58,171 bases of DNA from Deltaproteobacteria bacterium (lineage in GTDB: Bacteria; Myxococcota_A; UBA9042; DTJE01; S145-11): NCBI GenBank assembly GCA_015493765.1, contig WGCQ01000014.1:1-58171 (forward strand). The letters are read 5' to 3'. Position 1 is the first letter of the stretch; each line of letters opens with the position of its first letter. Below are positions 166 through 46,227 of the stretch, piece after piece. A program made the translations under genes and the position numbers. The notes under the pieces were generated by a model. It did no database searches, was not told the origin of the DNA, and was given only the letters and a program-made list of their open reading frames with translations.

Positions 166-372
166 CGGAGGCATCTTTGATACAAGTTATTTTTAAAGTG
201 CGTTATTTATCAAGGCATTACAAAACCCCGGATCAAAACCATCAAATCTAACAAACCGCAGGTACAGGGGATCAAGTCAAACACTTGGTGATCATAGCTA
301 CGCATTTACATACATTTATATCTATAGCGTTTTTTGAATTGCGAAATTTTTTATTGATATGTGATGCATATC
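166..372 (-). repeat. AT-rich dispersed intergenic element, B-type, inverted copy
   Basis: The reverse complement aligns by eye along its whole length with 28638-28843 and 45984-46227. Shared strings include ...cgcaattcaaaaaacgctat..atgtaaatgcgtagctatgatcaccaagtg... and the tail ctttaaaaataacttgtatcaaagatgcctcc. Confidence 0.75.
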
Positions 373-416
373 AAACTCAAATCCCGATCCATTACCCAGG
401 CTAATCCCGGAAGACC
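373..416 (+). repeat. 44-nt module (AAACTCAAATCCCGATCCATTACCCAGGCTAATCCCGGAAGACC) next to a GATATG..CATATC palindrome
   Basis: A near-identical 44-mer lies at 46004-46047 inside B copy 3 and is absent from B copy 2 (28.6 kb). Here it has the opposite orientation relative to the rest of the B element. Confidence 0.6.
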
Positions 417-514
417 CAAACCAAATGGGATGGCATAACGATTATTTATGCGTGTTTGCGAAATTGATTTTGTTTTTTGACCATTTTAATGCTAAAGTTT
501 TCATTGGCTTAAAC

Positions 515-523
515 TGGTAGAAT
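515..523 (+). promoter_or_regulatory. possible extended -10 (TGgTAGAAT) upstream of the helicase gene
   Basis: TGGTAGAAT lies 15 nt upstream of the ATG at 538. There is no clear -35 and only a weak SD (taaggt). Confidence 0.2.
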
Positions 524-537
524 TTAAGGTACTGACT

Positions 538-3500
538 ATGCCAACGATATACGACAACATAAAAAAACACCTGGAAGAAGGAATTACCAAAACACTGGAA
601 ACATCGAAACGTGCTGACTTTTGTATTGGTTATTTCAACTTGAGAGGATGGCAAAAGGTTTCACAACAGGTAAACAACCTTGAAGGGGATTATTTACCAG
701 AAGGATTTGAAGATGACAACAAATACTACTGTCGTGTTCTAATTGGCATGCAAAAACTTCCGGACGAACAGATAAAGGACTTCTTTGCTGGTAATTATGA
801 TTCTTTGGACAATAATAAAGCCATACAATTCAGAAAGAAAATTGCAAAGGAGTTTAAAGAGCAATTGACTATCGGTAACCCAACAAACGAAGATGAAAAA
901 GCCTTAAAGCAACTTGCCAAGCAGTTGAAGGAAAAAAGGGTAATCGTTAGACTACATCTCAGACATACTTTACATGCCAAGCTTTATTTGGCCTACAGAA
1001 ATGACTTCAATACTCCCATTATTGGTTTTGTAGGCAGTTCAAATTTGACGCTTTCTGGTATTTCAAAGCAAGGTGAATTGAATGTTGATGTTGTTGAAGG
1101 CGATGCGGCGACAAAACTATCGAAATGGTTTCAGGATCGATGGGAAGACCGCTGGAGTATTGATATTACAGAAGAACTTGCCGAAATAATAGAGAACAGT
1201 TGGGCGGCAGAAAAACTATATTCACCTTATCATATTTACCTGAAGATTGCCTATCATCTTTCCAGGGAAGCAAGAGCCGGAATTTCGGAATTCAACCTGC
1301 CAAGGGAATTCAAAAATATATTGTTGCCATATCAGCAAAGTGCCGTTAAAGTTGCTGCTCATCATCTTCACAAAAGGGGCGGAGTAATAATCGGGGATGT
1401 TGTGGGCTTGGGAAAAACATACACTGCAACGGCTTTGGCCAAACTGTTTGAAGATGATTTTTTCCTGGAAACATTGATAATCTGCCCTAAAAACCTTGTA
1501 AGCATGTGGGAAGATTATGCCCATAACTATCGGCTCAGGGCAAAAGTTCTTTCTATTACACAAGTACAATCAAAACTACCAAATGAGAGACGATATAGAT
1601 TGGTCATAATAGACGAAAGCCACAACCTTAGAAACAGGGAAGGAAAACGGTACAGGGCGATTCAGGAATATATTCGACTCAATGACAGTAAGGTTATTTT
1701 ACTCACGGCAACCCCTTACAATAAAACTTACCTTGATCTGAGTAATCAATTAAGGTTATTCATTGACGAAACGTATAATCTGGGAATAAGCCCGGAAAAA
1801 TATATTAAACATATTGGTGGAAGAATCCATTTCCTGGCAAATCATCAAGTTCCGGAAACTTCAATTTCCGCCTTTGAAAAAAGTTCTTTTGCAGAAGACT
1901 GGGCGGAGTTGATGCGGCTGTTTTTGGTAAGGAGGACCCGGAGTTTTATAAAAAACAACTATGCGAAACATGATGATAAGTTAAACAGGTATTATATAGA
2001 GTTTCCAAACGGTGAGCGCTCGTATTTCCCCGACAGAGTACCTAAAAAAGTTGATTACGCGTTTGACCCTGAAGACCCAAGCGACCAATACGCACAGTTA
2101 TACTCGGACAAAGTTGTAGATATCATTGATAGCCTGATTCTGCCAAGATACGGATTAGGACAGGAATGCTATGAAAATAAAAAAGCAGCTGTTCAAATAA
2201 CCGCAGAAGAAAAGATCATCAAAGAAAACCTGGGCAGAGCGGGTACTCGTCTGATTGGTTTTGCCCGAACAAATCTTTTCAAACGTTTGGAAAGCAGTGG
2301 ATACTCTTTTTTATTGTCGATTAGTCGTCATATTTTAAGAAATTACCTTTTTATTTATGCAATGGAAAACAATCTGCCATTCCCGATTGGAAAACAGGAA
2401 TCCGGTTTGATTGATGATTTTATGTATTCCGATAAGGATGTCGATGGTGACAATGATATTGGTATTCTGATTAAACCCGAAGACTATTTTGAACGGGCTG
2501 AAAAATATTACGCGTCTCTTTACAATAAAAAGGATAAATATCAATGGATTAAAAGCCAGTTGTTCAACGCAAAATTAAAAAAAGACCTGGAATTCGACAG
2601 CCAGGAATTGATGAAAATTCTGGACCTTGGTAAAAACTGGAAGCAAGAAAACGACCGGCAATTAAACGCATTATATGACCTGATCACTAAAACGCATAAA
2701 GGGGAAAAGATTCTGATATTCACTCAATTTTCGGATACCGCTTATTATCTGTTCGATTCGCTCAAAAGCAGAGATGTTGATAAAATTGAATGCGCAACCG
2801 GTGATTCGGAAGACCCTACAACGTTGGCATACAGGTTTAGTCCCAGAAGCAATGGAAAGAATATTCCCAAAGAACAAGAAATTAATGTGCTTATTACAAC
2901 TGATGTGTTGAGTGAAGGACAAAATTTACAGGATGCCCACATTGTATTGAATTACGATTTACCATGGGCAATCATACGATTAATTCAACGAGCGGGTCGT
3001 GTTGACAGGATTGGGCAAAAACACCACGAGATTTTGTGTTACTCGTTCTTACCGGAAGACGGGATTGAAAACATCATCAAACTACGCGGCAGACTAGGGC
3101 AAAGAATAAAAGAAAATGCCGAAACAGTCGGCTCGGATGAGGTTTTCTTCGAGGGTGACCCGATAAATATTGCCGACCTTTACAACGAAAAATCAGGTTT
3201 ATTGGACGAGGAAGACGATATTGAGGTCGATCTGGCTTCATATGCTTTCCAGATTTGGAAAAACGCCATTGATGCCGACCCTAAATTGGCGAAAATAATT
3301 CCCGATTTACCAAATGTAATTTACGCCACCAAAAAAGGCGATGATACCCAGGAACTAAATGGCGTGATCGTTTACACCAAAACGGCAAACGAAAATGATG
3401 TGTTGGCCTGGGTGGATGAAAAACAGCGCATTGTAACACAATCACAATTTGAAATATTGAAAGCCGTCAAGTGTAACCGTGATGAACCCGCGCTTGAGCG

Positions 3501-3885
3501 TTTTGAAAAACATCATGCCCTTGTAAAATTCGGCCTGGATTACATTAAAGAAACCGAATCAAAAATTGGTGGTCAATTGGGTAGAAAAACCGGGGCCCGG
3601 TACCGTGCGTATATGCGCTTGAATAATTACGCTGAGCGAAATGCCGGAACCCTTTGGGTAACCGAAGAGTTGAAACGCGCCATCCAGGATATTTACGACC
3701 ATCCGTTAAGAGAATATGCCCGGGAAACAATTAACCGCCAATTAAAAGCCGGCATCAGCGATGGAGATTTGGCAAATATTGTGATATCACTTCGGGAAGA
3801 CGGGAAACTGAGCCTGATTAGCGAGGACGAATCAACAGGCAAAGAACCTCAAATTATTTGTTCAATGGGATTAAGAATTAAGTAG
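538..3885 (+). CDS. HKD (phospholipase-D-family) nuclease domain fused to an SNF2/SWI2-family helicase-translocase
   Basis: 1115-aa ORF. A single N-terminal HKD motif reads LHAKLYLAY...GSSNLT (His codon at 973). SF2/SNF2 motifs follow: GLGKT (I), VIIDESHNLRN (II, nt 1612), LLTATPYNK (III), LITTDVLSEGQNLQ (V) and QRAGRVDRIGQ (VI). Composition is AT-rich. The stop TAG at 3883-3885 is 1 nt before the next ATG. Confidence 0.88.
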   Translation: MPTIYDNIKKHLEEGITKTLETSKRADFCIGYFNLRGWQKVSQQVNNLEGDYLPEGFEDDNKYYCRVLIGMQKLPDEQIKDFFAGNYDSLDNNKAIQFRKKIAKEFKEQLTIGNPTNEDEKALKQLAKQLKEKRVIVRLHLRHTLHAKLYLAYRNDFNTPIIGFVGSSNLTLSGISKQGELNVDVVEGDAATKLSKWFQDRWEDRWSIDITEELAEIIENSWAAEKLYSPYHIYLKIAYHLSREARAGISEFNLPREFKNILLPYQQSAVKVAAHHLHKRGGVIIGDVVGLGKTYTATALAKLFEDDFFLETLIICPKNLVSMWEDYAHNYRLRAKVLSITQVQSKLPNERRYRLVIIDESHNLRNREGKRYRAIQEYIRLNDSKVILLTATPYNKTYLDLSNQLRLFIDETYNLGISPEKYIKHIGGRIHFLANHQVPETSISAFEKSSFAEDWAELMRLFLVRRTRSFIKNNYAKHDDKLNRYYIEFPNGERSYFPDRVPKKVDYAFDPEDPSDQYAQLYSDKVVDIIDSLILPRYGLGQECYENKKAAVQITAEEKIIKENLGRAGTRLIGFARTNLFKRLESSGYSFLLSISRHILRNYLFIYAMENNLPFPIGKQESGLIDDFMYSDKDVDGDNDIGILIKPEDYFERAEKYYASLYNKKDKYQWIKSQLFNAKLKKDLEFDSQELMKILDLGKNWKQENDRQLNALYDLITKTHKGEKILIFTQFSDTAYYLFDSLKSRDVDKIECATGDSEDPTTLAYRFSPRSNGKNIPKEQEINVLITTDVLSEGQNLQDAHIVLNYDLPWAIIRLIQRAGRVDRIGQKHHEILCYSFLPEDGIENIIKLRGRLGQRIKENAETVGSDEVFFEGDPINIADLYNEKSGLLDEEDDIEVDLASYAFQIWKNAIDADPKLAKIIPDLPNVIYATKKGDDTQELNGVIVYTKTANENDVLAWVDEKQRIVTQSQFEILKAVKCNRDEPALERFEKHHALVKFGLDYIKETESKIGGQLGRKTGARYRAYMRLNNYAERNAGTLWVTEELKRAIQDIYDHPLREYARETINRQLKAGISDGDLANIVISLREDGKLSLISEDESTGKEPQIICSMGLRIK

Positions 3886-3886
3886 T

Positions 3887-6800
3887 ATGGAAAAAAACAG
3901 GTTTTCGAAATATATTAAAAACTTCGATTTTGTTACCCTCTTCAATGAATTGGGTTGGGATTATTTCAAAAATACTTTGTCCGTTGCGGTTAACCAGGAT
4001 ACATTCATACTGCAAGGCATTGTCGAGAAAAAAGGGTTTGTTATCCTGCACTGTTCGGCATTACCAAATGGCAAAATACCGTTAAGCAATATTCGAAAAC
4101 AGATTGAAGCAAAGGTTGCAAAGCATTATTTTGAGCATCTTATTATTTATTCGGACCGGAATCAATCTCAACAGATCTGGCAGATGGCCATAAAAGAAGA
4201 AAACAAACCCAAGCAGGTACGCGAAATTCCGTGGTACAGCCATCAGGATACGGAGATTCTTTTTCAGCGTTTAAGGAATTTACTGTTTACACTTGATGAG
4301 GAAGAAAAGATCACCATTGTTGATGTAAAGCGGCGTGTTTCCGAAAATTTCGCCCAAAACACGGAAAAAGTAACCAAAAGGTTTTATACGGAGTTCAAAA
4401 AGCAACATACCGCCTTTCTCGATTTTATTCAAGGAATTGACGATCACATTGGCAACAGGGAAAACACCAACAAACAATGGTATGCATCGCTAATGCTTAA
4501 TCGTTTGATGTTTTGCTATTTTATTCAGAAAAAGGGATTTTTGAACCAGGATATCAACTATTTGCGCAATAAATTGGACGAATCCAAGCGTTATGCGGGA
4601 AAAGACAAGTTTTACGGCTTTTACCGGAGTTTTTTATTGGAATTGTTCCACGATGGATTGGGCAAGCCCAAAGAGCGCCGGCATGAACATCCCATTGCCC
4701 TGGGCAAAATTCCATATCTCAATGGCGGCTTATTTGATGTGCACATGCTGGAAAAACAATTCGACAGCATTGATATCAAAGATGAAGCCTTTGAAAGGCT
4801 GTTTGCATTTTTCGATAAATGGAACTGGCATCTTGACAACAGCATTGAAGCAACCGGCAGGGATATCAACCCCGATGTGATAGGTTATATCTTCGAAAAA
4901 TACATTAACGACCGGGCTGCCATGGGCGCCTATTACACCAAAGAAGACATTACCGATTACATTGGCAAAAACACGATTATACCGTTTTTGTTTGACGAAA
5001 CCGAGCGGCACTACAAAAAGGCCTTTAAACCCGATAGCGAACTGTGGAAAATGCTTCAACAAAGTGGCGACACCTATATTTACGATGCGGTGAAAAAAGG
5101 GGTGCCGAAAAACGGTGATTTGTTTGGTGATTTGCCCGCGGAAATAAAAGAAGGTTTTAAGCCCGAACTTGAAAAAGAAATAGTCAAGGCAGAAACGTCA
5201 CCTCATTTATGGGAAATTCGTAAAGTATGGAACAAAAAAGCCCCTGGGGACATCGCGCTCCCCACTGAAATTTACCGTGAACTGATCGAACGCAGAAAAC
5301 GATATGCAGAAATAAAGTCGAAAATCGAGAACGGCGAAATAACACATATCAACGATTTTATTACTTACAATTTAAACATCCGCCAGTTTGCCCAGGATTT
5401 TATTGAAAACACCGGGGATGCCGATTTTATACGCCATTTTTTCAAAGCCATAAAAAAGATAACCATACTTGACCCCACCGCGGGTTCCGGCGCCTTTCTG
5501 TTTGCCGCAATGAATATTCTGGAACCGCTCTATGAGGCCTGCATAATGCGTATGGAACAATTTGTGGCCGAAGAACCCGGTAAACATAAATTTTTCGAGG
5601 AAGTGTTGCGGGAAGTAAATGCCCCTCAGCACCCAAACCTGAAATACTATATTTTCAAAAACATCATTTTGAATAACCTGTACGGTGTGGATATTATGAA
5701 GGAGGCCGTTGAGATCGCCAAACTCCGGCTGTTTCTGAAACTGGTTGCCACTGTTGATGTCAATCCCCGCAAAGAAAATTATGGCCTGGAGCCTTTGCCT
5801 GACATCGATTTTAATGTACGGGCCGGTAATACCCTTGTAGGCTTTGCCACTGAAAAGGAGCTGCTGGATACCATTGAAAAGCAAGAACCACTTTTTGCAA
5901 AAGACAAACTTGAAGCATTTAAAGAAGAATTCGAACTGGTCAGCAAAGCATACAGACACTTCCAGAATGCACAACTAATAAACGACCAGGGAAGCGAAAA
6001 TTTCAAAGCAGCCAAGGCGGAGCTGAACAGGCGATTAAACGATCTCAACCACAAACTGAATATTTATTTGGCGACCAATTATGGCATTACCGATGCCGAA
6101 GGCAAACAAAAAGATAAATACAAACAATGGTTAAGCACGCACCAACCCTTTCATTGGTTTGCCGAGTTTTACCGGATTGTTGCCGTCAACAGCGGTTTTG
6201 ACGTGATTATTGGGAATCCGCCGTATATTGAGTATTCTAAAGTCAGAGAATTATATAGGATATTAAGTGGGGTTTATAAAACAATAGAATGCGGTAACAT
6301 TTATGCAATGGTATTTGAAAGAAGTCTTCAACTGTCATCATTCAAAGGAAAAAATGGATTAATAGTTCCAATAAGTTTAGGTAGCACGAAACGAATTGAA
6401 CCTCTATTAAGAATATTGAGAGCAAAGTCTGGTTCTTTTTGGTCAAGTTTTTATGCTGAACGTCCATCAAAATTATTTTCTGGAGCAGAAGTATTATTAA
6501 ATATATCAATAGTTGATGTCTCAAAGGTTAAAGATGAACACATATATTATTCAACAGGACTAAGGAAATGGAGTGCTGAATACAGGGAACACCTTTTTCC
6601 AAGTCTAACATACACTCATTATTCAAATACTATTAGAGATTATCTAATTCCAAAATTCTTATCCAATTTAGAAATACACATTAGCAATAAAGTTTTCTCA
6701 AAATCAAAAAAATTAGGACAGTCATTTATTTCAGGAAGCACATGGAAAATATACTACCGTATAGGCGGAGGGAGGTATTGGAAAATATTTACAACCTTTC

Positions 6801-7291
6801 AACCTAAATTTGTTGTTGAAGGTAAACAAATAGCCTCAAGTAGGGAGCGTTGTCTATATTTTAGTTCAAAAGAAAATTTACATGTTAGCCTTATTACCCT
6901 AAATTCCTCAACTTTTTTTTGGTATTTCCAAATTACTACTAATGGTCGTGATTTAAATCCATTTGATTTAAAGAGTTTCCCTATTGACGTTAATTCACCA
7001 ATAATCTCAAAGGATGTAGGAATTATTGCAAATGATTTAATGGATGACTATAAATTGAATAAATTACAGAAGGAAAAAGTGTCAAAGAAGACAGGGCACA
7101 TTCTTTATGAGGAGTTTTACCCAAGAAAATCCAAGCCCATCATCGACCAAATCGACACTGTATTGGCCCAATACTATGGGTTCACGGAGGAGGAATTGGA
7201 TTTTATTATCAATTACGACATAAAATACAGGATGGGTAAAGAATTGGATGCTTATGTAAACGGTACTCTTGGTAAAACAGATGAAAAATAA
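3887..7291 (+). CDS. Large gamma-class N6-adenine DNA methyltransferase, type IIG / Eco57I / PglX-DrmMI-like, with C-terminal target-recognition domain
   Basis: 1134-aa ORF. It has a helical coupler motif WYASLMLNRLMFCYFIQKKGFL, the AdoMet motif I ILDPTAGSGAFLFAA (about nt 5468-5495) and the catalytic motif IV VIIGNPPYIEY (AAT CCG CCG TAT at 6215-6226). The C-terminal end YGFTEEELDFIINYD is typical of TaqI-C-like specificity domains. I recognise no clear PD-(D/E)xK motif. Confidence 0.88.
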   Translation: MEKNRFSKYIKNFDFVTLFNELGWDYFKNTLSVAVNQDTFILQGIVEKKGFVILHCSALPNGKIPLSNIRKQIEAKVAKHYFEHLIIYSDRNQSQQIWQMAIKEENKPKQVREIPWYSHQDTEILFQRLRNLLFTLDEEEKITIVDVKRRVSENFAQNTEKVTKRFYTEFKKQHTAFLDFIQGIDDHIGNRENTNKQWYASLMLNRLMFCYFIQKKGFLNQDINYLRNKLDESKRYAGKDKFYGFYRSFLLELFHDGLGKPKERRHEHPIALGKIPYLNGGLFDVHMLEKQFDSIDIKDEAFERLFAFFDKWNWHLDNSIEATGRDINPDVIGYIFEKYINDRAAMGAYYTKEDITDYIGKNTIIPFLFDETERHYKKAFKPDSELWKMLQQSGDTYIYDAVKKGVPKNGDLFGDLPAEIKEGFKPELEKEIVKAETSPHLWEIRKVWNKKAPGDIALPTEIYRELIERRKRYAEIKSKIENGEITHINDFITYNLNIRQFAQDFIENTGDADFIRHFFKAIKKITILDPTAGSGAFLFAAMNILEPLYEACIMRMEQFVAEEPGKHKFFEEVLREVNAPQHPNLKYYIFKNIILNNLYGVDIMKEAVEIAKLRLFLKLVATVDVNPRKENYGLEPLPDIDFNVRAGNTLVGFATEKELLDTIEKQEPLFAKDKLEAFKEEFELVSKAYRHFQNAQLINDQGSENFKAAKAELNRRLNDLNHKLNIYLATNYGITDAEGKQKDKYKQWLSTHQPFHWFAEFYRIVAVNSGFDVIIGNPPYIEYSKVRELYRILSGVYKTIECGNIYAMVFERSLQLSSFKGKNGLIVPISLGSTKRIEPLLRILRAKSGSFWSSFYAERPSKLFSGAEVLLNISIVDVSKVKDEHIYYSTGLRKWSAEYREHLFPSLTYTHYSNTIRDYLIPKFLSNLEIHISNKVFSKSKKLGQSFISGSTWKIYYRIGGGRYWKIFTTFQPKFVVEGKQIASSRERCLYFSSKENLHVSLITLNSSTFFWYFQITTNGRDLNPFDLKSFPIDVNSPIISKDVGIIANDLMDDYKLNKLQKEKVSKKTGHILYEEFYPRKSKPIIDQIDTVLAQYYGFTEEELDFIINYDIKYRMGKELDAYVNGTLGKTDEK

Positions 7292-7738
7292 ATGGAATAT
7301 TTGGGTGATAAGAATATATTGAAATTAGAAAAAACCGCTTTTCTGTGTTCTCAAAAATGCCCGGCGGAAATTGTACTTAAAAGCTTTGATTGGGCAAAGA
7401 AACAAAGAGAACAGGGAAACTGTATTGTTTGCGGCAACCATTCGCAAATCGAAAAAGATGTTTTTGAAATACTGCTAAAAGGGAAACAGCCATTAATACT
7501 CGTACTGGCCAGAGGAATGAAAACCAGGTGGGGCCCGGCAATCGAAAAAGCGGTGAAAGAAAACAGGTTGTTGGTGATAAGTTGTTTTAAAAAAGAAACC
7601 ACAAGGGTAACCAGAAAAACAGCAGAAAAGCGGAATAAAAAGATTATAGAGATCAGTGAGCATGTAGTCATTGGCTACAAATCGAAAAACGGACAATTGG
7701 AAAAGATATTGAAACAAACAGAATATGAACAATTGTAG
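7292..7738 (+). CDS. Small DprA/Smf-like (SLOG/Rossmann-like) protein
   Basis: 148-aa ORF whose ATG directly abuts the TAA of the methyltransferase. It resembles the DprA Rossmann core by eye: TAFLCSQKCP vs GSRxxS, CIVCGNHSQIEKD vs IVSGxARGID, PLILVLARGM vs xIAVLGxGL, and AEKRNKKIIE vs FPxRNRII. There is no SAM or DML1-like extra domain. Confidence 0.5.
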   Translation: MEYLGDKNILKLEKTAFLCSQKCPAEIVLKSFDWAKKQREQGNCIVCGNHSQIEKDVFEILLKGKQPLILVLARGMKTRWGPAIEKAVKENRLLVISCFKKETTRVTRKTAEKRNKKIIEISEHVVIGYKSKNGQLEKILKQTEYEQL

Positions 7739-7755
7739 CCCATGCCAAAGAAGAC

Positions 7756-7850
7756 GGACTCGTAATAAATCAAAACCGGCAAACCCATATCTAATAAAAT
7801 CAAATGGTTAGAGGGAAAAAAATGGTTAAAATCGGACTTTTTACGAGCCC
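7756..7850 (+). repeat. A-type ~95-bp AT-rich element with 10-bp terminal inverted repeat (GGACTCGTAA...TTACGAGCCC)
   Basis: It aligns with 45779-45873 through cgtaataaatcaaaa..ctaataaaatcaaa..aaaatcggactttttacgag. The ends are inverted repeats, which gives it a MITE-like look. Confidence 0.65.
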
Positions 7851-7855
7851 ATCAT

Positions 7856-7906
7856 GCTTTGATAAACAACGTACTCTAAAAATAACCTGTATCGAAGATG
7901 CCTCTA
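7856..7906 (+). repeat. Truncated tail of B-type element
   Basis: gctttgataaacaacgtactctaaaaataacctgtatcgaagatgcctcta matches the 3' ends of the B copies at 28795-28843 and 46175-46227. It is inverted relative to 166-200. Confidence 0.75.
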
Positions 7907-7919
7907 CCCCCAACGGGTG

Positions 7920-7948
7920 TTGACACTTTCTGCCTGGTATGCCAAAAT
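7920..7948 (+). promoter_or_regulatory. possible sigma70-type promoter (TTGACA-17 nt-CAAAAT)
   Basis: The match lies 34 nt upstream of the ATG at 7982. Called by pattern only. Confidence 0.25.
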
Positions 7949-7981: not shown

Positions 7982-8443
7982 ATGAATACGTTATGGAATG
8001 AAGTGCTTATGAAGACATTGATGGAGCGTTTTTCACCATTGGTGTTAAAACTTTTGACAGACCCCAGAATACAGTCATTGCTGGCCGAGGTCCTGAATCT
8101 CCAGTCAGGCCTGCGGGAAAACATCGAAAGCCAGGTCAAGACCGTTGCCAGGACGTTGGACCTGGCAACCCGTGACGAGGTTACTGGTGTGCGCGACGTG
8201 GTCAAGGCCCTGGAGGCCCAGGTTGCGGAACTCAAAAAGGCGCTGGCGGAAAAGGACCAGAAAATCGAGGCACAGGACAAGGCCATTGACGAGTTGAAAG
8301 ACGAGGTAAAAAAGGCCAAAACCACCGCAAAGAAGGCCAAGACGACGACAAAGACCAGCTCCACGTCCGGAGCCAAAAAGACTACTACTAAAAAAGCGAG
8401 CAAATCCACAAAAAAGGATTCAGCGGCTAAGACAGAAAAATAG
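7982..8443 (+). CDS. Phasin-like coiled-coil protein with Lys/Thr-rich histone-H1-like tail
   Basis: 153-aa ORF with an AGGAGG SD 5 nt upstream. The segment LDLATRDEVTGVRDVVKALEAQVAELKK resembles PHA-granule phasin/PhaF-type repeats. The C-terminal tail reads KKAKTTAKKAKTTTK...KKTTTKKASKSTKK. Confidence 0.5.
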   Translation: MNTLWNEVLMKTLMERFSPLVLKLLTDPRIQSLLAEVLNLQSGLRENIESQVKTVARTLDLATRDEVTGVRDVVKALEAQVAELKKALAEKDQKIEAQDKAIDELKDEVKKAKTTAKKAKTTTKTSSTSGAKKTTTKKASKSTKKDSAAKTEK

Positions 8444-18834: not shown

Positions 18835-19206
18835 GACCGTGGCCGTGACCGTTGGCCGTGACCGTGGGCCGTGACCGAGGTTTCCGGTTACCACGGGAGC
18901 CTTTCCGAAAGGCCCGCAGCAACCGCAGGCTGCGTCCCGACGCCCGATACCAGAGGCCCGAATCCGTTGACCGTGGGCCGTTGGCCGTTGACCGTGGCCG
19001 TTGGCCGTGGCCGGGGTTTCCGGTTACTGCGGAAGCCTTCCCGCAAGGCCCGAAGGGCCGTCCCGCAGCAGCCGCAGGCTGCGTCCCGACGCCCGATACC
19101 AGAGGCCCGAATCCGTTGACCGTTGACCGTTGACCGTGACCGTGGGCCGTGGCCGTGTGATCCCGGTGAAAACGAAAGCCGTGGAGCGCAGGCGGCCTCG
19201 CCTGCC
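18835..19206 (+). repeat. GC-rich mosaic repeat C1: GRCCGT hexamer tracts flanking two ~137-bp core copies plus a conserved tail
   Basis: Tracts of GGCCGT/GACCGT/GGGCCGT surround the core GGTTTCCGGTTACNNCGGRAGCC...GCAGCCGCAGGCTGCGTCCCGA, which occurs twice (about 18878 and 19013). The tail GTGATCCCGGTGAAAACGAAAGCCGTGGAGCGCAGGCGGC is shared with 58010-58050. Confidence 0.8.
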
Positions 19207-28545: not shown

Positions 28546-28637
28546 ATAAAGGGGGCTGAAACGGGTTCAGATAAGCGGAGTTAAGCCAATTTGAGCGCAG
28601 GCATACTATCAGCGAGCATACATGGGTTCACATGCAA

Positions 28638-28843
28638 GCCGATATGCATCGCATATCAACAAAAAATCTCGTAACCTAAAAAACGCTATGAATGCATGTA
28701 AATTCGCTGCTATGGCTACCAAATGTTTACCCTAATCCCCCTTGTACACGTGTTTTGTCAGAATTGATGATTTTGGTCCTTGGTTTTGTAACGGTTTGAT
28801 GAATAACTTATTCTAAAAATAACCTGTATCGAAGATGCCTCTA
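28638..28843 (+). repeat. AT-rich dispersed intergenic element, B-type (copy without the 44-nt module)
   Basis: It aligns with 45984-46227 and with the reverse complement of 166-372. It ends 69 nt upstream of the mreB ATG. Confidence 0.8.
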
Positions 28844-28911
28844 ACCTGATTTTGTGCTCAACAACAGCAAACAAATGTGCTATAAATCGAAATGTTGTAC
28901 TGAGGAGCTTT

Positions 28912-45873: not shown

Positions 45874-45983
45874 GTCATATAACGACTTTGTAACACTCTC
45901 GAGACCGCCTGCGGTCCGACTACAGTACCATCCATGACATCCGTACTCCACCATGAGTCTTCTTCCTCCCACCACCCCACACA

Positions 45984-46227
45984 GCCGATATGCATCGCAT
46001 ATCAAACTCAAATCCCGGTCCATTACCCAGGCTAATTCCGGAAGAGCCAAAAAATCTTGCAATTCAAAAAACGTTACGAATGCATGTAAATTCGCTGCTA
46101 TGAGCACCAAGTGCTTGTCCTAATTCCCCTTATGCGTTTTGCCAGAATGGACGATTTTGACCCAGGGTTTTGTAACGGCTTGATAAATAAGGTGTTCTAA
46201 AAATAACCTCACATCGAAGATCCCTCA
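45984..46227 (+). repeat. AT-rich dispersed intergenic element, B-type (copy containing the 44-nt module)
   Basis: It aligns with 28638-28843 apart from a 44-nt insertion at 46004-46047, directly after the palindrome GATATGCATCGCATATC. It ends 83 nt upstream of the ATG at 46310. Confidence 0.8.

Follow-up and report, generated by a model that had tools for sequence, protein, structure and literature searches.

The window, 58,171 nt in length, is the entire contig C14 of a metagenome-assembled genome (MAG) of a Deltaproteobacteria bacterium (279 contigs, 3.57 Mb; 96.8% complete, 2.9% contamination). The nearest relatives of this host genome belong to another family of the same order. An AT-rich block, here called the island, is located at the very start of the contig, and its left flank ends at the contig end. 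The island holds three intact, tightly packed genes, all on the + strand. The first (538–3885) encodes a protein of 1,115 aa in which an HKD (PLD-family) nuclease is fused to an SNF2/SF2 helicase (Pfam PLDc_2, RE_NgoFVII, SNF2-rel_dom, ResIII, and Helicase_C). It matches the HKD+Snf2 profile of PADLOC (5.5e-59), and the translation carries LHAKLYLAY...GSSNLT (HxK...GSSN), GLGKT, and DESH motifs. The second gene (3887–7291) encodes an Eco57I/PglX-type N6-adenine DNA methyltransferase of 1,134 aa with a specificity region (Pfam Eco57I and MmeI_Mtase); it gives a full-length match to the PADLOC profile REase_MTase_IIG PDLC03628 (3.2e-289) and contains the S-adenosylmethionine-binding motif ILDPTAGSGAF as well as GNPPY. 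Its stop codon directly abuts the ATG of the third gene (7292–7738), the product of which is a DprA-like (Rossmann/SLOG-type) protein of 148 aa. The match of this protein to Pfam DNA_processg_A (2.4e-5) lies below the family cut-off, and it also matches PADLOC PsyrA at 7.6e-10. Ahead of the operon is a unique AT-rich leader (421–537, + strand; 32.5% G+C), with no other copies in the genome and no match at related cassette loci.

Because of its domain content, the cassette is predicted to be an ATP-dependent restriction-modification-like system. The methyltransferase would tag host DNA at sites recognised by its variable C-terminal region. The HKD–SNF2 protein, the putative ATP-dependent restriction subunit, would translocate on unmarked DNA using ATP and cut there. 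The DprA-like protein is probably a conserved accessory subunit. A first-pass annotation of this DNA had stated that the block contains no integrase or transposase, and indeed none of the three open reading frames (ORFs) matches such families among the Pfam, PADLOC, and NCBIfam profiles. Rfam at gathering threshold gave zero matches in the whole window; no dedicated tRNA scan was made.

The composition of the island is the extreme of the genome. The contrast noted by eye in the first-pass annotation (roughly 40% against high-50s% G+C) is real when computed: G+C is 38.9% for the genes (538–7738) and 38.7% for 166–7906, as compared to 55.6% from 7980 to the end of the window and 54.5% for the whole assembly. 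Among 1,904 sliding 7.2-kb segments (mean 54.6%, standard deviation 2.5%), the island has the lowest G+C, more than 6 standard deviations below the mean. Its tetranucleotide distance from the genome mean is the highest of 598 segments (z = 8.7). Codon usage deviates as well, with G+C at third codon positions of 0.39–0.41 in the two large island genes versus 0.658 ± 0.076 in 1,666 ORFs of at least 250 aa. The island is single-copy, with no second copy in the genome.

Relatives of the methyltransferase are encoded at 35 loci (scan with one genome per species), nearly all in Bacteroidota and one in Lentisphaerales; the lineages are Dysgonamonadaceae, Lentimicrobium, Aequorivita, Paludibacteraceae, Muribaculaceae, Prevotella, and others. 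The helicase gene lies directly upstream in 32 of the 35. In 24, the DprA-like gene is found downstream as the final gene, sometimes with one to three additional genes intervening. The best named relative is Lentimicrobium sp. BF4_106 (locus L026, 38.2% G+C), with protein identities of 88.6% (helicase), 68% (methyltransferase), and 79.7% (DprA-like). A metagenomic relative, L065, located on a contig of 39% G+C, shows 86% identity for the helicase and 82% for the methyltransferase, and a further search with the helicase found nothing above 86% identity. In a maximum-likelihood tree of the helicase, the island, Lentimicrobium, and unnamed metagenomic sequences form a clade with 100/99 support. 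The enclosing clade (100/95) has as named members Bacteroidota plus one Chlorobi MAG, and its sister group comprises Desulfobacterota and Scalindua homologues. The best helicase match among 40 relatives of the host, which come from other families, has 33% identity, and none of these genomes carries the cassette. Horizontal acquisition of the island from a Bacteroidota-like donor is strongly supported, because the composition is extreme, the cassette recurs in Bacteroidota at like G+C, the helicase nests there, and the host relatives have no close homologue. On this point the first-pass annotation, which proposed that the cassette was acquired horizontally, was right.

At the DNA level, the match to the Lentimicrobium locus (~80%) begins at 537, 1 base before the ATG of the helicase gene, runs to 6226, resumes from 7127 and ends at 7740, two bases past the last stop codon. 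The intervening part of the methyltransferase gene (6226–7127, ~900 nt) has lost similarity to its closest relatives, with both sides at ~80%. This is the pattern that would be expected of a swapped target-recognition/specificity region. The composition of the island simply matches that of its closest relatives. Amelioration toward the G+C of the host was considered and rejected: a first three-taxon count (387:102 versus 226:194) suggested island-specific AT-to-GC drift, but the control with L065 shows the same bias on both branches (365:153 versus 233:107, p = 0.54).

The cassette family is very widespread, with at least 8,000 candidates among those with the best word-sharing, all at E ≤ 1e-50. 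No tested example of the family turned up in a limited literature search. Plasmid records with homologues number 72, of which 36 are conjugative or mobilizable, and on pPRO1 of Pelobacter propionicus the helicase–methylase pair adjoins a serine recombinase. Beside the related cassettes, no recurrent mobility genes were found (68 flanking proteins scanned, at 24 of the 35 loci, L026–L051). Carriage by phage was also considered and rejected, as only weak partial matches were obtained. Some related cassettes have a variable middle slot, in which extra genes lie between the methyltransferase and the DprA-like gene (L026:13444–14958 and L027:13421–17067) and the DprA-like gene stays last. The gene in the middle slot of Lentimicrobium encodes a 504-aa protein with a cytidine/RibD-type deaminase domain.

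Both edges of the island are occupied by small repeat modules. On the left, the contig begins exactly at the first base of module C (1–162, + strand; ~160 nt, ~46 genome copies), the bases of which are covered by 23–40 other copies with up to 99% identity (C98). This is followed by a full B module in reverse orientation (166/168–372, − strand; 1 of 86 B copies), with its tail, the outer end, at 166–216 and its palindromic head P (GATATGTGATGCATATC) at 356–372. The palindrome is common to the reversed B and to a P+X module (356–420, + strand; ~70 X copies), in which X is intact to 420. On the right, an intact A module (7753–7855, + strand; ~61 copies) starts 14 nt past the stop codon of the DprA-like gene and is fused to a B tail, the last ~51 nt of B (7856–7909, + strand; end at 7906/7909). 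Both border B tails fall in the minority GTATCG tail subfamily. Since 1–162 and 356–420 also repeat, all of 1–420 is repeat, and only 421–7752 is unique. The first-pass annotation had missed module C and P+X. It had placed the reversed B at 166–372, correct within a few bases, and had recognised both A and the B tail on the right, with slightly different bounds (A at 7756–7850 and the tail ending at 7906). The outermost ~32 nt of the two borders are inverted copies of each other as it described, with 4 mismatches in 32 rather than about 3 (3 in 31 when the first base is dropped).

Three assemblies join the island to these host-specific repeats at ≥99.9% identity, namely L001 (108–13885), L002 (376–7808), and the MAG contig. 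Searches for exactly matching proteins yielded no assemblies except those of the same population, and every one of them breaks at these repeats. These data bear on the idea that a Bacteroidota fragment from the same sample was wrongly joined to the contig during assembly or binning. A fragmented metagenome bin (279 contigs, 2.9% contamination) and an island G+C equal to that of the Bacteroidota relatives would be in keeping with such an artefact. We regard it as extremely improbable, as both sides of the island are joined to repeats with ~50–90 copies in this genome and none in the Bacteroidota loci, in a separate Logan contig the island is bordered by 162 nt of P/X at its left end and 70 nt of A at its right end, and another assembly runs from 108 through the island into sdh.

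The modules form a mosaic at 333 sites in the genome, with approximate copy numbers of 86 (B), 88 (D), 79 (P), 70 (X), 61 (A), 46 (C), and 15 (E). No B copy is present in 20 other genomes of the same order, and none of the modules occurs at 36 related cassette loci (L025–L059 and L065); the modules are therefore host elements. B itself is ~205 nt long plus a conserved extension of ~28 nt upstream of the palindromic head, and further copies are located in the window at 28637–28846 and 45983–46226. Several B copies are near-identical, which indicates that the family was active recently. Of 60 B copies, 40 have the head within 400 nt of a contig end; the tail is so placed only in the left copy at the island. 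Nine contigs start or end at one same internal position of B, and most contig breaks in the MAG coincide with stacks of small repeat modules. The fragmentation of the MAG is largely due to these stacks on the head side of B, which also explains why all three available assemblies stop within 1–420.

The position of the contig start could be read differently, with the island as the right-hand piece of a larger acquisition, such as an integrated plasmid or element, that has its mobility genes beyond the left end of the contig and the stack at 1–420 as an internal feature. A contig that starts at base 1 of a repeat module, three assemblies that all break in the same stack, and homologous cassettes on plasmids, beside a serine recombinase on pPRO1, are in keeping with such a region. 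We consider it very unlikely: the host-specific repeats of 1–420 speak for a return to host-type DNA at that point, related cassettes have no recurrent mobility genes in their flanks, and positive evidence for such a region is lacking.

B has a constant relationship to promoters. Of 77 copies, 65 lie upstream of a gene and in its orientation, with the ORF start at a median distance of 63 nt. No such bias in orientation is seen for X, A, D, or C. In 73 aligned B tails, conservation stops at ...ATCGAAGATNCCTC and is followed by unconserved DNA with aligned TTGACA-like and TATAAT-like hexamers. A sigma-70-like site is present within 70 nt downstream of 33 of 74 B tails, versus 4.1 ± 1.7 in shuffles, and in 27 of those 33 copies the −35 box begins 13–17 nt past the end of B. 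At the right border of the island, a sigma-70-type promoter-like site (TTGACA-17-CAAAAT, with TG before the −10; 7920–7948, + strand) lies 13 nt past the B tail, the same phasing as at most B copies. The first host gene on this side (7982–8443, + strand) has host-normal G+C and encodes a phasin-like protein of 153 aa; it is followed by sdhCDAB. Homologues of the phasin-like protein are found in 35 of 41 related genomes, the synteny around the gene is not kept in the order, and a metagenome scan with this protein gave no match. The right-hand B copy fits this pattern exactly and belongs to the phasin/sdh promoter. B has the look of an upstream promoter module that is either mobile or recruited. 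The left B copy points away from the island and may serve a leftward promoter beyond the contig end.

The first-pass annotation suggested that the repeats had captured or moved the cassette by recombination between copies, or that mobilisation in trans had taken place, as for a composite or MITE-bounded unit (MITE, miniature inverted-repeat transposable element). The details of the borders lend no support to either suggestion. Neither the outer borders (166 and 7906) nor the inner joints (420 and 7753) have a target-site duplication: outside the former no k-mer of ≥5 nt is shared, the latter share only GAAGAC (6 nt), and no direct repeats of ≥9 nt beyond a trivial one link the two sides at either border pair. 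The borders are not built alike: the left one is the composite B(−)-P-X(+), the right one the composite A(+)-B-tail(+). Each also occurs elsewhere in the genome: the left composite recurs at C195, C92, and C209, and the right chimera at C221:16379–16524 and C174:31096–31247. The two border B tails are 87.5% identical and rank among each other's relatives only 26th and 4th of 72. The homology to the Lentimicrobium cassette does not extend as far as the repeats, its limits being 537 and 7740. A transposable unit is not borne out, as the ends are unmatched, the target duplication is missing, and the ends are absent from the 36 cassette loci. Capture by the flanking repeats is likewise without support, because the repeats are host-specific, the homology ends short of them, and B is promoter-phased.

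Our preferred interpretation, to which we assign a probability of about 70%, is that 421–7752 is an acquired Bacteroidota (Lentimicrobiaceae-like) restriction-modification-like defence operon and that the repeats at its edges are independent host elements, not the ends of a transposable unit. Since related cassettes occur in many contexts and on plasmids, without mobility genes, the likeliest route of transfer would be a plasmid or DNA uptake. Illegitimate or short-homology recombination would then have placed the operon in the repeat-rich intergenic region upstream of the phasin/sdh operon. The edge repeats would either pre-date the insertion or have been added afterwards in the AT-rich flanks.

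Several observations sit less easily with independent host elements at the edges. The left B copy is followed by module C and then the contig end, without a recognisable promoter. In an ORF-based census of 5,215 gene blocks of 3–12 kb, B occurs in the intergenic regions on either side of only 5, and 49 are flanked at both ends by a module of any kind. With B bracketing at this frequency, pure coincidence is not a comfortable explanation; the estimate is post hoc and is also biased, because the assembly breaks at the same repeats. The order B(−)-P-X(+), cargo, A(+) also surrounds a low-G+C two-gene block on C209. Part of the island may lie to the left, beyond the contig end. The nearest relative, only ~80% identical in DNA, is too distant to fix the donor or the date.

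Some of these points would be accounted for if the operon had first resided on another replicon or at another locus of the host lineage with A/B/P/X and had been moved from there by homologous recombination or in trans. The rarity of two-sided bracketing (~0.1% of gene blocks for B, ~0.9% for any module), the membership of both border tails in the minority GTATCG subfamily, and the recurrence of B(−)-P-X(+) ... A(+) around the C209 block, with its unique 19-nt direct repeat, are all consistent with such a movement, and the near-identical, assembly-breaking B copies point to recent activity of the family. It is nevertheless unlikely in our judgement. Neither border pair has a target duplication or a direct repeat, the border copies at 87.5% identity are not nearest relatives, and the ends are different composites that each occur elsewhere without cargo (for example, at C221). 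Moreover, the island is single-copy, the one transposase family searched, Y1_Tnp, gave no enzyme linked to the modules (its single gene has a different, GC-rich repeat), and low-G+C segments are not enriched for modules, with ~14 of 51 having any module within 1.5 kb. A broader proposal, which we hold to be distinctly doubtful, is that A/B/P/X/C are a mobile, promoter-phased system in which the P heads and the stacks act as hot spots that capture foreign operons beside host promoters. If so, B(−)-P-X(+)/cargo/A(+) would be the signature of capture at the island and at C209, and the repeats would have installed or moved the island.

The block on C209 (1912–5800) is the second low-G+C segment (46%) found between B(−)-P-X(+) and A(+). 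Its two genes encode an orphan secreted protein of 666 aa and a PG_binding_1/GH46-like protein. The 19-nt sequence TAAATTTGCAAATCCAAAC is present at 1912–1930 and again, as a perfect direct repeat, at 5639–5657, and has no further copies in the genome. The −35 region of the promoter belonging to the block lies within the second copy.

An origin of the palindromic head P from repetitive extragenic palindromic (REP) sequences and their associated transposase (RAYT) was considered and rejected. A search of the genome with Y1_Tnp, the only transposase family searched, found one gene (C83:1785–2369), and this sole Y1 transposase-like gene (RAYT/IS200-like) is flanked by a different repeat. The GC-rich GGAGCGCAGGCGTCCTCGCCTGC is present on both of its sides and in ~55–90 copies, a classical REP/RAYT arrangement. 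Related repeats are located in the window near 19180 and 58040. The GC-rich mosaic elements of the window are probably explained by the GGAGCGCAGGCGTCCTCGCCTGC repeat, which is unrelated to the AT-rich A/B family.

The island is a clear case of a defence operon that has crossed between phyla, from Bacteroidota to an uncultured lineage that is rich in multihaem cytochromes and has ~55% G+C. The transferred operon keeps a donor-like composition, which is helpful for annotation and unsurprising in kind. A foreign restriction-modification-like island is an ordinary kind of feature; here it is located in an unusual repeat landscape. The repeat system of the host is the more interesting by-product, with ~330 module sites and B phase-locked upstream of promoters in ~65 unrelated operons, and merits study as a possible mobile regulatory element.

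Among named defence systems, the BREX-related Type-2 BR systems contain a pair of HKD-Snf2 helicase and N6-adenine methylase, plus DUF499 and DUF3780 genes (PMC12839542, 2026 survey). The island resembles them in the pairing of an HKD-nuclease–SNF2 helicase with a PglX/Eco57I-type N6-adenine methyltransferase and in the predicted restriction-modification-like logic. It differs in that neither DUF499 (a BrxC-like ATPase) nor DUF3780 is present, none of the only three ORFs between the repeats giving a match; the conserved third gene encodes a DprA-like protein instead. None of the NCBIfam models of BREX, DISARM, and Dpd components reaches its cut-off on the island proteins, those of BREX and DISARM remaining far below. 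For class 1 DISARM, the DrmD model scores 121.9 bits against a cut-off of 610, the PADLOC matches to DrmD, DrmA, and DrmMI are partial, and separate DrmA, DrmB, and DrmC genes are absent from the island. Type IIG enzymes combine nuclease and methyltransferase in one polypeptide. The island methyltransferase fits PDLC03628 over its full length; its residues 1–500 contain no Pfam nuclease domain, and it is the adjacent helicase gene that carries the nuclease.

Restriction-modification operons are horizontally transferred as self-standing 'selfish' units without mobility genes of their own. The island is similar to these in being a compact methylase and nuclease operon with atypical composition and patchy phylogenetic spread; the cassette occurs in many chromosomal contexts and on plasmids, and neither an integrase of its own nor terminal repeats were seen, nor, in the Rfam search, a tRNA site. 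The joints of the island differ from this picture, as they abut intact host modules (X at 420 and A at 7753) and not ordinary unique DNA. The ~50 nt of related inverted sequence at the outer edges and the lack of an internal transposase are reminiscent of a composite transposon or a MITE-bounded unit. In contrast to these, the island has no target-site duplication, its ends are unmatched and belong to differing composites, the unit is single-copy, and the ends are missing wherever else the cargo occurs. For the repeats themselves, the closest comparison is with the Correia elements of Neisseria, which are small dispersed repeats associated with promoters. Like them, B is a short, high-copy, lineage-specific intergenic element located beside genes and associated with promoters. 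Unlike them, the inspected B copies have neither terminal inverted repeats nor target duplication, B does not itself supply the promoter, keeping instead a fixed phase ahead of a separate −35 box, and it belongs to a mosaic of at least seven modules with a common palindromic head.

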